A stretch of 64,000 nt of DNA from NCBI GenBank assembly GCA_963700635.1, contig CAVOYH010000004.1:288001-352000 (forward strand). Direction: 5' to 3'. This stretch comes from an uncultured Bacteroidota bacterium. GTDB taxonomy: Bacteria; Bacteroidota; Ignavibacteria; UBA10030; UBA6906. Each line of letters opens with the position of its first letter. Position 1 is the stretch's first letter. Made by a program: the position numbers and the translations under genes. Below are positions 51,568 through 55,581 of this stretch, in pieces. The notes below the pieces were generated by a model. It saw nothing but the letters and a program-made list of their open reading frames with translations. It had not been told where the DNA came from and made no database searches.

Positions 51568-52566
51568 ATGACAATTCTTGGCATTGAATCCTCCTGCGAT
51601 GAGACCTCCGCCTCGGTTGTAAAAGACGGCGTCGTCCTGTCGAACATAATATCCTCACAACTGGTCCATAGAACTTATGGTGGTGTTGTTCCGGAACTTG
51701 CATCCCGGGCCCATCAGCGACTGATCCTTGATGTTGTGCAGGAAGCGCTCACGCAGGCACACACGACGCGTGAGGATCTTGGGGGTATCGCCGCCACCCA
51801 CGGTCCCGGACTCATCGGCGCTTTGCTTGTGGGACTCAATTTTGGCAAAGCCATGGCCTACGGGCTTGGAATACCCTTTGTCGGAGTGAATCACATGGAA
51901 GGGCACCTGTACTCGAACATGCTGCGCCCGCAGGCCCATGGGTTCCCATTCCTCGCGCTCATCGTATCCGGAGGCCATACGATGCTGGTTCATGCCACCG
52001 GGCCGTTCCAGCATCGTGTACTCGGTCAAACGCGGGATGACGCCGCCGGGGAGGCTTTTGACAAGGTGGCGAAGATGCTGGGCCTCGGGTATCCCGGGGG
52101 CCCGCGGATAGATGCACTGGCGAAGAAGGGCAATCCCCGGTCAATCCGTTTTCCACGATCATTCCTGGACCGCGACACGTTTGATTTCAGTTTTAGCGGG
52201 GTAAAAACCGCCGTGCTGTACCATGTGCGGGACAACGGAGTACCTGAGACCGAACAGGGGATGGCAGATCTTTGTGCGAGTTTTCAGGATGCGGTTGTGG
52301 ATGTGCTCGTTGAAAAGACACTGCGTGCGGCACGACGGACAGGAGTATCTGACATCACGGTCGCCGGTGGAGTCTCGGCGAATTCCCGCCTGCGGTCACG
52401 ATTGGGGGATGAATGCGAAACACAGGGATTCCGCCTGTTTTCGCCGGGGCTGGAATTTTGTATGGATAACGGCGCCATGATTGCGTACGTTGGCTGGATG
52501 AAATTGAGCCGGGGTGTTCGATCCCCGCTGTCATTGCCCGCTGTCGCTGCCCTGGAGCTGGCCTAA
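51568..52566 (+). CDS. tsaD: tRNA N6-adenosine threonylcarbamoyltransferase
   Basis: ILGIESSCDETS, GGVVPELASRAH, VNHMEGH, VSGGHT, DDAAGEAFDKVAK, GGVSAN and DNGAMIA. Confidence 0.97.
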   Translation: MTILGIESSCDETSASVVKDGVVLSNIISSQLVHRTYGGVVPELASRAHQRLILDVVQEALTQAHTTREDLGGIAATHGPGLIGALLVGLNFGKAMAYGLGIPFVGVNHMEGHLYSNMLRPQAHGFPFLALIVSGGHTMLVHATGPFQHRVLGQTRDDAAGEAFDKVAKMLGLGYPGGPRIDALAKKGNPRSIRFPRSFLDRDTFDFSFSGVKTAVLYHVRDNGVPETEQGMADLCASFQDAVVDVLVEKTLRAARRTGVSDITVAGGVSANSRLRSRLGDECETQGFRLFSPGLEFCMDNGAMIAYVGWMKLSRGVRSPLSLPAVAALELA

Positions 52567-52570
52567 ACCT

Positions 52571-53638
52571 ATGAAACCGATCTCTGCTTCTTTCCCGCGG
52601 ATGTTCTCCCGACGCACACTTGTGGTCGCCGGTGGAGTCCTGCTGGGACTCTTCCTGTTGACCGTGTATGTCGTGTTTTTCGGGGAGAACACTTTTGGAG
52701 AAGAACAGGAGAAGATCTTCTTCGTCCGGCGCGGGCAGTCTTTCTCCCACATCGTGGATTCACTCGATCAACAGGGGGTAATCCGGAGCAGGAACATGTT
52801 CAAGTGGGTGGCCCGCATCTACGGCGGAACCGAGAGGATACAGGTGGGGAAATACCGGTTCACGAGCGGGCTTTCCAATGCTGAGATCTTCCTGATGCTG
52901 CGTAACGGTGAAGGGAATCAGCTCATCAAAGTCACGATTCCGGAAGGGGCCAGCCCACGCCTGCAGGCACGATTGTTTTCCCGTTTAATCGGCATTGATT
53001 CGGCGCGTTACAGTTCAATAGCGTACGATCCGGAGTTTACACGCGACGCCGGAATCGATGCTGCATCACTGGAAGGATATCTCCTGCCCGAAACATACTC
53101 CCTGCGCTGGGGACTCGATGAGGAGGATCTGATACAGATGCAGGTGCGCGAATTCAAGACGTTCTTTTCAGATTCCCTGATCGAGCGGGCGCAAGAACTT
53201 GGTTGGAGTATCCATCAGGCCGTGACATTCGCTTCGATCGTGGAGGGTGAGGCGGTTCTGGACGAAGAACGGCCGGTGATTGCTGGAGTGTACCACAACC
53301 GTCTTCGCATCGGCATGAAGCTGGAGGCAGATCCGACGATCCAGTATATGTTCGATGAAAAACCGAGGAGGGTGCTCTATTCAGATTTGCGTGCAGATAA
53401 TCCGTACAATACGTACAAGTATGTCGGCCTGCCCCCGGGTCCTGTCAATAATCCCGGAAAGGCTTCCATTCTCGCCTCTCTGTATCCTGCGGGGCACAAC
53501 TATTTGTTTTTTGTCGCGAATGGCAGAGGGGGGCACTGGTTTTCAGCTTCGTACACAGATCACTTGAAGAATGTGAGACGGTACCGGCACGAGAGGGCAC
53601 GGCGGTGGAGAGAAGAAAAAAGCCTCACCGGGGGGTGA
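52571..53638 (+). CDS. mltG: Endolytic transglycosylase MltG
   Basis: N-terminal TM, VTIPEG, LEGYLLPETY, ASIVEGE, GVYHNRL..GMKLEADPT, PYNTY...GLPPGP..NPG and YLFFV. Confidence 0.95.
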   Translation: MKPISASFPRMFSRRTLVVAGGVLLGLFLLTVYVVFFGENTFGEEQEKIFFVRRGQSFSHIVDSLDQQGVIRSRNMFKWVARIYGGTERIQVGKYRFTSGLSNAEIFLMLRNGEGNQLIKVTIPEGASPRLQARLFSRLIGIDSARYSSIAYDPEFTRDAGIDAASLEGYLLPETYSLRWGLDEEDLIQMQVREFKTFFSDSLIERAQELGWSIHQAVTFASIVEGEAVLDEERPVIAGVYHNRLRIGMKLEADPTIQYMFDEKPRRVLYSDLRADNPYNTYKYVGLPPGPVNNPGKASILASLYPAGHNYLFFVANGRGGHWFSASYTDHLKNVRRYRHERARRWREEKSLTGG

Positions 53639-53646
53639 GGCCTTTT
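53616..53646. terminator. Bidirectional Rho-independent terminator
   Basis: A6-GCCTCACC-GGGG-GGTGAGGC-CTTTT. The minus strand gives U6 immediately after the stem, and the plus strand gives a weaker CUUUU. Confidence 0.8.
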
Positions 53647-53830
53647 CCTGAACTAGAGACGCATTCCCTGGATCACCCACCATGCATCCTCTTAATACAA
53701 TGCCGGGGTGTATCAGGGTCAGCCGTTACCGCCACCTTCCACCAACGGCTCAGCACGTCCAACTGCACGTGACTCCTGTACACCCCGGGCGTAAACATTA
53801 TGTCGCACATTCTCTGGTTCAGACTACCTC
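53616..53830 (-). ncRNA. Candidate structured non-coding RNA (~200 nt, family unassigned)
   Basis: Nested helices: 53648-53659 with 53811-53822, 53703-53712 with 53779-53788, 53714-53720 with 53772-53778, and hairpins at 53721-53750, 53754-53771 and 53670-53689. It ends in a terminator whose U6 is on the minus strand, where no nearby CDS ends. Confidence 0.6.
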
Positions 53831-53859
53831 ATGCTTCTACCTGTAGGAACGAGCAGAGT

Positions 53860-55581
53860 ATGAACAAAGTTCCCACCTCACGCGGTCGTTCAAGAGCCGT
53901 GGTTTTTCAATGGCTTGCAGCGATTGTTTTTGCAGGGTGCGCGGGGCAGATTCACCCCTCCGGTGGCCCAGCCGATTCCATTCCTCCGACCATTATCCGG
54001 ACCGTTCCCGATACAAATGCAATCCGTGTCGCCACAAGGTTTTTCGAACTGGAATTCAACGAATATGTCGACCGGCGGTCCGTGGAGGAATCGATATTTA
54101 TCTCCCCATATCTCGGTGCGCTGGAGTTTGATTGGGGAGGACGGGATGTGCGCATCATTTTCGCGGACACACTGCGGAGGAACACAACGTATGTGGTAAC
54201 AGTCGGGACTGACGTGATCGATCTGCGTGCACAGAACAGGATGGCCCGGGGGTATACGCTCGCCTTCAGCACGGGAGACTCTCTTGATCAGGGTGTGATT
54301 CAGGGACATGTTGTGGACGAGCGGCCGGACGGAGTGATGATCTTCGCCTATAATCTTGAAGGAGTCGATCCCGATACCCTTGATCCGTCACGTGCCCGCC
54401 CCGACTACATTATGCAGACGGGAGCTGACGGCCGATTTCAGCTGCGAAATATTGTTCTCTCAACATACCGGGTGATCGCAGTCCGCGATGAGTACCGGAA
54501 TCTACTCTACGATCGAGAAGTTGATGAGTACGGTGTCTCACAACATGACATCACCCTCGCCCCGGACCGCCCCCGCGAAGAAGGGATCTGGTTCCGGCTT
54601 GCAAAGGAAGACACCACCAGACCGTTCCTTTCCAGTGTGGCCGCTTCCGATCAACATCATCTGCTTATCCGGTTTAGTGAAGCCGTTGATACGCTCTCCG
54701 TTGCTACGGCCCTCGTAAGTGTCTCTGATACGCTCACCGCACTCCCTGTGCGGCTCGGGGCGCTCTATCCGGATATGGCGAATCCGGCACTGCTCGGAGC
54801 TGAGTTGCTTGATCCTCTTGACAGCACCCGTGTGTACCGCCTACGTGTCCGGGGATTCCTCGATCGTACCGGTAATGCCATCGACACCGTGCACAGTATC
54901 GCGGATTTTTCCGGCTCGGGTATTCCCGATACTTCGAGGCCTTCGCTGAGAATAAGGGGGGTAGCCGATAGTGCCCAGGGTGTTCCGCTCAACTCTCCCT
55001 TTCAGATAGAGTTTGGCAAGCCTGTCTCTCTTCGCGGGGCACTGGCAGCGGTGCGGCTGATGGACAGCTCACACAGTGTTGTCCCTGCCACCATCGTTGC
55101 TCGAACCCCCGCGGAAATACTTCTTCTCCCGCATGCCAGCCTCTCGCCTCTTGCGTGGTATTCCATCCGGGTGGTGATGGACTCGTTGGTGGATAGCCGG
55201 GGAAATCGGTATCAGGATTCGCTTGTGACCGTGAGGTTCAGGACTCTTGACCTGCGCTCGACAGGGTCAATCGAAGGACAGGTGCTGGATCCCACGGGAA
55301 AAGGGAATGTTATGATTACCGCGCGGAGTGTGGATCTGATTCCTCCGCGAACAGGTTCAGTCGTTGTCGAGAAGGGAACCGCGTTCATGATCCGGGAACT
55401 GTCTGAAGGAAAGTACACGATTCAGGGATACCGTGATGAGGATAGGAACGGCGCATACAGTGCGGGGCTTCCGTCTCCGTTTCGTCCGTCTGAACGTTTT
55501 GTTGTTTATCCCGACACCGTGAAGGTGCGCGCGCGATGGAGCATAGAGGGAGTGATACTCAGGTTTCCCGAAGGCAGGTAG
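53860..55581 (+). CDS. Ig-like (Big_5) domain lipoprotein
   Basis: Lipobox FAGC then A...PSGGP.D..PP, FNEYV and AFSTG..LD.G.I.G, with repeated D...P-started Ig modules and C-terminal D.D.NG.YS.G...PF.PSE. Confidence 0.85.
   Translation: MNKVPTSRGRSRAVVFQWLAAIVFAGCAGQIHPSGGPADSIPPTIIRTVPDTNAIRVATRFFELEFNEYVDRRSVEESIFISPYLGALEFDWGGRDVRIIFADTLRRNTTYVVTVGTDVIDLRAQNRMARGYTLAFSTGDSLDQGVIQGHVVDERPDGVMIFAYNLEGVDPDTLDPSRARPDYIMQTGADGRFQLRNIVLSTYRVIAVRDEYRNLLYDREVDEYGVSQHDITLAPDRPREEGIWFRLAKEDTTRPFLSSVAASDQHHLLIRFSEAVDTLSVATALVSVSDTLTALPVRLGALYPDMANPALLGAELLDPLDSTRVYRLRVRGFLDRTGNAIDTVHSIADFSGSGIPDTSRPSLRIRGVADSAQGVPLNSPFQIEFGKPVSLRGALAAVRLMDSSHSVVPATIVARTPAEILLLPHASLSPLAWYSIRVVMDSLVDSRGNRYQDSLVTVRFRTLDLRSTGSIEGQVLDPTGKGNVMITARSVDLIPPRTGSVVVEKGTAFMIRELSEGKYTIQGYRDEDRNGAYSAGLPSPFRPSERFVVYPDTVKVRARWSIEGVILRFPEGR

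Follow-up and report, generated by a model that had tools for sequence, protein, structure and literature searches.

The DNA analysed here is a 64,000-nucleotide stretch (the window) from the genome of an uncultured Ignavibacteria-like bacterium of the phylum Bacteroidota. The locus of interest lies between mltG (52514-53638, plus strand; Pfam YceG, E 3.9e-81) and a gene for a lipoprotein with an Ig-like Big_5 domain (53860-55581, plus strand; Pfam Big_5, E 2.9e-27), with 222 bases between the stop codon of the former and the start of the latter. This spacer very probably contains a small non-coding RNA gene on the minus strand, which is divergent from the lipoprotein gene and preceded by a promoter of the type used by extracytoplasmic function (ECF) sigma factors. 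Computation established its conservation and covariation, the strand, the motif of the promoter and the tail of the terminator. The spacer is single-copy in the source genome, which argues against a repeat or a mobile element. A sequence-only reading had previously described almost the entire spacer as a structured RNA of about 200 nt, and the features it listed are all found in the sequence: a perfect 10-bp stem (53703-53712/53779-53788), a 12-bp closing stem (53648-53659/53811-53822) with one pair that is T.G on the plus and C.A on the minus strand, the pentamer CCACC at 53677, 53732 and 53739 of the plus strand, a hairpin at 53670-53689 and a terminator hairpin at 53622-53641.

The nested rod of about 200 nt into which these elements were joined did not hold up among the five other genomes of the genus. 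In one of these congeners the left flank is missing together with its half of the 12-bp closing stem, in another the right flank with the right half, and two of the five have a broken second hairpin at the junction. The rod is therefore peculiar to the source genome. In BLAST searches all five genomes match over 53699-53789 only, with 78-96% identity, and the right half of the closing stem (53811-53822), which is not conserved, falls into the predicted leader of the RNA. What is conserved is a unit of about 90 nt (53703-53788), which consists of the 10-bp stem, its extension and, enclosed by the stem, the centre with the motifs. In the source genome, both strands fold better than shuffles: the minus strand folds with -72.8 kcal/mol (z -2.56; 4 of 200 dinucleotide shuffles equally good) and the plus strand with -63.8 kcal/mol (z -4.62; none of 200).

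A first covariance model, built from the six sequences of the genus, gave full-length matches in three further genera. Of the 15 loci, 14 are flanked by mltG and the lipoprotein gene in the same orientation; the remaining one, adjoined by neither gene, was dropped as false. A second model from these 14 sequences added two genomes of another genus at the same locus. mltG could be located in 67 of the 68 genomes of the family, and 45 stretches downstream of it were scanned without speed filters. The element is present in 27 of them (E up to 0.05) and has the orientation of mltG in every case; the other 18 gave no match, and seven family genomes had no usable stretch. In total, the element was found between mltG and the Big_5 lipoprotein gene in 43 of 68 genomes and in 18 of 29 genera of the family. 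The homologues which the sequence-only reading had proposed to collect from this intergenic region show both conservation and covariation. Beyond the family it was not found in 120 genomes from eight other families of the order or in 147 genomes from 25 other families within the class (strict filters), nor in 20 stretches downstream of mltG in the eight other families of the order, which were scanned with filters off. A pattern scan of named genomes returned 37 stretches, 11 of which pass the model. All 11 are from metagenome-assembled genomes, labelled Ignavibacteriae or Ignavibacteriota (six), Bacteroidota (four) or Chlorobi (one).

The outer stem is supported by covariation across 39 distinct homologues. 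In these, 89.8% of the cells are paired, compared to 68.2% in shuffles and 27-53% in slid controls; both partners vary in 12 of the 13 pairs (110 cells), and none of 500 shuffles reaches the covariation score. Within the stem lie 40-60 nt with many C and A but few G residues on the plus strand, and hence a G/U-rich sequence on the minus strand. Several tests assign the structure to the minus strand. The columns of the core helix contain 12 A.C or C.A cells, which correspond to G.U pairs on the minus strand, versus a single G.U cell on the plus strand. This column-wise count replaced a first mismatch count (82 versus 12), which was inflated by the A/C-rich centre and was discarded. In 34 of 39 homologues the two arms form the more stable duplex on the minus strand, with a mean difference of 3.5 kcal/mol. 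At least six T residues within the 12 nt after the stem are found on the minus strand in 37 of 43 homologues and on the plus strand in six, and in many genera this U-rich tail starts no more than a few bases from the stop codon of mltG. An inner helix of 3 bp (GUC/GAC) is paired in 100% of the cells of the first 14 sequences and less well over all 39; it is likely to be real, but is not established.

Upstream of the stem, the minus strand of all 43 homologues carries the motif GGAAC[C/T]-N16-nGTT with a spacing of exactly 16 nt. The motif is absent from that strand in all 20 control stretches downstream of mltG in other families. In the source genome, the -35 box (GGAACT on the minus strand, 53868-53873) lies within codons 3-5 of the lipoprotein gene on the opposite strand, followed by the -10 box (CGTTC on the minus strand, 53847-53851), whose GTT contributes 1.6-1.9 bits per position. 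An open reading frame (ORF) with a lipobox cysteine followed by AGQ or AGD begins at most 60 nt from the -35 box on the opposite strand in 39 of 43 homologues, so that the RNA promoter and the 5' end of the lipoprotein gene overlap. A promoter scan of 53450-54000 detected no sigma-70-type promoter on either strand. Together with the strand tests, the invariable presence of the motif supports the earlier prediction of an independently transcribed minus-strand RNA that is antisense in orientation to both neighbours. Three of the stretches downstream of mltG that do not match the model (L083, L085 and L123) still carry GGAAC-N16-nGTT on the expected strand, and may contain strongly diverged or reduced versions of the gene.

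From the geometry of this promoter, the transcript is predicted to start at about 53840 (+/-3), 6-8 nt past the -10 box; in the homologues, the start was placed 6 nt after the -10 motif. The predicted leader (53789-53840) is followed by the 5' arm of the outer stem (53770-53788), which pairs with the 3' arm at 53703-53721. Among the homologues the leader is predicted to comprise about 2-55 nt, with a distance of 8-61 nt between promoter and stem. The G/U-rich centre (53722-53769) contains a hairpin (53722-53727/53744-53749) with GGUGG twice in its loop, corresponding to the plus-strand CCACC at 53732 and 53739, and a poorly conserved second hairpin that bears GUUGG. Directly after the 3' arm, the tail is weak in the source genome (CAUUGUAUU). 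An extra hairpin follows at 53670-53689, in which a third GGUGG is displayed in the loop CAUGGUGGGUG. It occurs in only part of the family: its sequence, CAUGGUGGG, is kept in four of the six genomes of the genus, and a single genome from another genus also has it (flank of L086).

In the source genome, the RNA likely ends with the hairpin at 53622-53641 and a minus-strand U tract at 53612-53621. The tail of this hairpin is TTTTTTCTTC on the minus strand, as read directly, and CTTTTCCT on the plus strand; the terminator scan lists the hairpin on the plus strand only. The stop codon of mltG (53636-53638) lies inside the hairpin, and this combination of coding sequence and hairpin is kept in five of the six genomes of the genus. 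The hairpin is likely a two-way terminator common to mltG and the RNA. The RNA of the source genome would then probably have a length of about 229 nt, from about 53840 through the GGUGG hairpin at 53670-53689 to the U tract. Where the U tail follows the stem directly, a length of 95-160 nt (median 138 nt) is predicted.

All 43 predicted RNAs contain UGGUG and 42 contain GGUGG, mostly twice, with two or more copies of GGUGG in 35. The pentamer is present 2.12 times per RNA, compared to 0.47 times in shuffles, which is a 4.5-fold enrichment. The bases of the GGUGG/UGGUG motifs have an unpaired probability of 0.55, compared to 0.36 for the remaining bases, and the value is higher for the motif in 39 of 43 RNAs. 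Enrichment and unpairedness thus bear out the earlier proposal that GGUGG is displayed in loops. The centre contains insertions and deletions whose lengths are not multiples of three, and the idea that it encodes a leader peptide was set aside on this ground. As in the class of ECF-sigma-dependent small RNAs (sRNAs), the unit is short, apparently lacks a conserved ORF and ends in an intrinsic terminator made of a stem and a minus-strand U tail (37 of 43), its ECF boxes have a fixed spacing (43 of 43), and the same motif precedes the gene of an ECF sigma factor.

This promoter pattern is identical to that of the experimentally mapped SigH/SigE promoters of Corynebacterium glutamicum, GGAACn-N16-CGTT, as listed in Table 2 of PMC10012870, and the boxes also fit the canonical EcfG promoters described in a section of PMC8103513. 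A position-weight matrix (23.5 bits) was built exclusively from 40 non-redundant promoters of the RNA and scanned over the whole genome. The RNA locus itself ranks second. The third-ranking site is located 83 nt upstream of a gene for an ECF sigma factor of 207 aa (Sigma70_r2, r4_2; C3:511988-512608), and its position 79-84 nt from the start codon is kept in 10 of 30 orthologous loci, comprising five of five in this genus and five of five in one other genus. The best site (24.2 bits, contig C5 285866, plus strand) precedes an ORF for a membrane protein of 144 aa without Pfam match, whose start codon nearly coincides with the predicted start of transcription, so that a leaderless mRNA may be produced. 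Further top-ranking sites are found before genes for a TonB-dependent receptor, a YceI protein, a DUF6448 protein and membrane or secreted proteins.

On the side of the lipoprotein gene, 15 of 43 homologues share an invariant plus-strand TATATT within the transcribed 5' part of the RNA. It may be the -10 box of the lipoprotein gene, and no -35 partner is evident by eye. If TATATT does serve this purpose, the two promoters would point towards one another, with possible interference between them. In 15 homologues (e.g., L093 and L117), a variable, covarying hairpin is found between the start of the transcript and the outer stem, with an invariant CAAUAUA in its loop. This loop, which reads TATATT on the plus strand, could belong to the lipoprotein gene as a promoter box or be another loop with a function in the RNA. 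The Big_5 lipoprotein has a mature N-terminus, C-AGQ-(V/I)-PP-x-GGP-x-D-x-(I/V)-PP, that is strikingly conserved throughout the family; its signal peptide is not.

The locus is best read as the gene of an ECF-sigma-dependent sRNA on the minus strand, which would pair with its targets via the GGUGG loops; we assign this reading a probability of about 0.6. Transcription would start at the ECF promoter that overlaps the beginning of the divergent lipoprotein gene and, in most other genera, would end at the U tract directly after the outer stem. The GC-rich outer stem would serve both as scaffold and as terminator stem, holding out the G/U-rich centre, whose UGGUGGGUG-type motifs are predicted to sit in loops. 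Synthesis of the RNA would be switched on by an ECF sigma factor, for which the 207-aa protein is the candidate. The RNA could then constitute the repressing arm of a stress regulon and act independently of Hfq, with its GGUGG loops pairing to C/A-rich sites in target mRNAs. Transcription across the overlapping promoter region of the lipoprotein gene may in addition lower the expression of that gene.

Several observations weigh against this assignment. Convincing targets are lacking: two crude scans of 35,104 candidate start sites in the source genome, one for exact complementarity of at least 9 nt to the loops and one for duplex energies, gave scattered matches on doubtful ORFs, which amount to noise, and with a crude ORF set and a G-rich seed these scans are uninformative rather than negative. 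Hfq was not found with PF17209 in the source genome, which is 97% complete, and pairing, if it occurs, would have to rely on a different helper or proceed unaided. The tie to the sigma gene consists of the shared motif, and 20 of the 30 orthologous sigma loci lack this motif and show a housekeeping-type TTGACA-N17-TATAnT instead. In the source genome the stem is directly followed by a weak U tail and the plus strand has the better z score of the two, and the small inner hairpin is ambiguous with respect to the strand (6 G.U versus 7 A.C cells). The homologues are kin, so the counts overstate the independent support. Six metatranscriptome runs each contain about 5% of the words of 53400-54100. 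Contigs from four of these runs (168-632 nt, from relatives) match only 53714-53790 and continue on both sides with unlike flanks; they provide neither strand nor ends nor proof of transcription, and nothing was drawn from them.

The TTGACA-N17-TATAnT sequences before the sigma orthologues indicate that these bacteria use classical -35/-10 boxes and not the TAnnTTTG of Bacteroides. Between this promoter and the start codon, the same 20 sigma loci (among L136-L160, within the 120 nt upstream) contain three or four direct ATCG-n-ACA-like repeats, which look like operator sites for a repressor.

Other functions have been considered for the same promoter and RNA. Two to four loop-borne GGUGG units inside a terminator-grade stem could act as a stress-induced decoy that captures an RNA-binding protein or C-rich nucleic acid when the ECF sigma factor is active, in the same way as CsrB titrates CsrA with its GGA motifs. 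Such a function is unlikely, although it would agree with the presence of at least two GGUGG copies in most of the RNAs, with the enrichment and preferentially unpaired state of the motif, with the lack of an mRNA target in both scans of the source genome and with the occurrence of CsrA in this genome. The motif, however, is not that of CsrA: GGA is present 2.44 times per RNA compared to 2.99 times expected from shuffles, and AGGA is found in just 14 of 43. In the source genome, csrA is located directly downstream of fliW (C3:207747-208246, minus strand), the gene of a CsrA antagonist, in the arrangement of a flagellar partner switch. csrA next to fliW is known from protein-based control of CsrA. 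The CsrB analogy of the sequence-only reading, taken literally, is not supported, and titration of another partner by the GGUGG repeats is possible; two to four motifs are few for a sponge, however, and no candidate binding protein is tied to the locus. Rather unlikely, too, is a role confined to the neighbouring genes, in which the ECF promoter fires through the promoter and 5' region of the lipoprotein gene and lowers its expression through interference or a short overlap in antisense. The proximity of the -35 box to the lipoprotein start in 39 of 43 homologues and the TATATT inside the RNA of 15 are in line with this proposal, but TATATT is without evident partner and the length of the leader between promoter and stem varies freely. 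Within the same proposal, the structured element would chiefly be a strong terminator protecting mltG against antisense transcription. The position of stem and U tail right after the mltG stop codon fits such a terminator, yet a plain terminator needs no conserved centre of 40-60 nt with an almost invariant motif.

Two further explanations were considered. A plus-strand element, either the leader of the lipoprotein mRNA or a structured 3' untranslated region of mltG (e.g., a stabiliser or an entry site for Rho, rich in C and poor in G), would account for the good plus-strand fold in the source genome, for the C/A-rich, G-poor composition of the centre on this strand and for the constant position after mltG. 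The mismatches in the stem are however A.C on the plus strand (12 versus 1), a T tail follows on this strand in just 6 of 43 homologues, in 15 the element is located upstream of the likely -10 box of the lipoprotein gene, and the minus-strand promoter conserved in 43 of 43 would be left unexplained, which makes a plus-strand element very unlikely. A 6S-like RNA that binds the RNA polymerase holoenzyme, as proposed in the sequence-only reading, is extremely improbable. In its favour are the length of about 229 nt and the rod-like minus-strand fold in the source genome, in which no 6S RNA is detectable with RF00013. RF00013 did not match in the window, the region, the homologous stretches or the whole genome, however, and neither the closing stem nor the rod with its bubble is conserved. 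The conserved unit has about 90 nt and the RNA 95-160 nt in most genera, its promoter is of the stress (ECF) and not of the housekeeping type, and it was found in a single family.

The Rfam search proposed in the sequence-only reading returned no family at gathering scores in the entire window. With relaxed thresholds, 53450-54000 (E up to 10) gave four chance hits, which either lie on the terminator or score far under the threshold, and 12 homologous stretches (E up to 1) gave two chance hits only. A signal recognition particle (SRP) RNA is found elsewhere in the genome, and this identity was set aside. The gene belongs to a new RNA family that would represent a known kind of regulator, the ECF-sigma-dependent sRNA. 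No paper on RNA regulators in Ignavibacteria-like bacteria was present among the matches listed by a full-text search (best 15 of 230).

With a structure supported by covariation, a clear strand, a promoter of the stress-sigma type and a conserved motif, the locus is a well-defined candidate, and the promoter matrix offers a usable model for one ECF regulon in uncultured organisms. If the preferred assignment as a target-pairing sRNA is correct, the principle that a sigma factor needs an RNA arm for repressing genes would extend to another deep lineage, in an Hfq-free case of unusual build, the seed being located within the terminator stem. If the RNA were instead a decoy, its titration motif would be unlike that of any described sponge and would occur in a lineage without detected Hfq, and the head-on orientation of its promoter to the lipoprotein gene would act as a switch at the same time.

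Among known RNAs, 6S RNA resembles the RNA of the source genome, and only of this genome, in size and rod-like fold, but its model does not match and the rod is not conserved; CsrB/RsmZ share the repeated loop motifs, although the GGA of CsrB is not enriched here. The closest parallels in regulation are the RpoE-dependent sRNAs MicA, RybB and MicL, which are described in part of PMC8103513 as the RNA arm of the envelope stress response. Like these, the gene is small and non-coding, has an ECF-type promoter and an intrinsic terminator, is located among genes for the cell envelope and probably shares its regulation with proteins of the outer membrane and periplasm (cf. the same part of PMC8103513). 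It differs from them by the absence of sequence or Rfam similarity, by the boxes GGAAC/CGTT, by the failure to find Hfq in the source genome and by the location of its motif inside the terminator-closing stem and not at a free 5' end. The SigH/SigE and EcfG-type promoters (GGAAC-N16/17-CGTT) have the same two boxes and the same 16-nt spacing in the examples given in PMC10012870 and PMC8103513; they drive protein genes in Actinobacteria and Alphaproteobacteria, whereas here the candidate factor is an unclassified ECF sigma factor of an Ignavibacteria-like bacterium. GibS and other sRNAs of Bacteroides are trans-acting and belong to a related phylum without known RNA chaperone, according to sections of PMC7366714. 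GibS, however, has a long, unstructured and A/U-rich 5' seed and a housekeeping promoter (same sections), in contrast to the G-rich, highly structured RNA with an ECF-type promoter described here. FoxI and FoxJ, the sigma-E-dependent sRNAs of Fusobacterium nucleatum, represent the same scheme outside the Proteobacteria, as outlined in portions of PMC11005410 and 10.1101/2022.07.29.501972; the organisms are unrelated.

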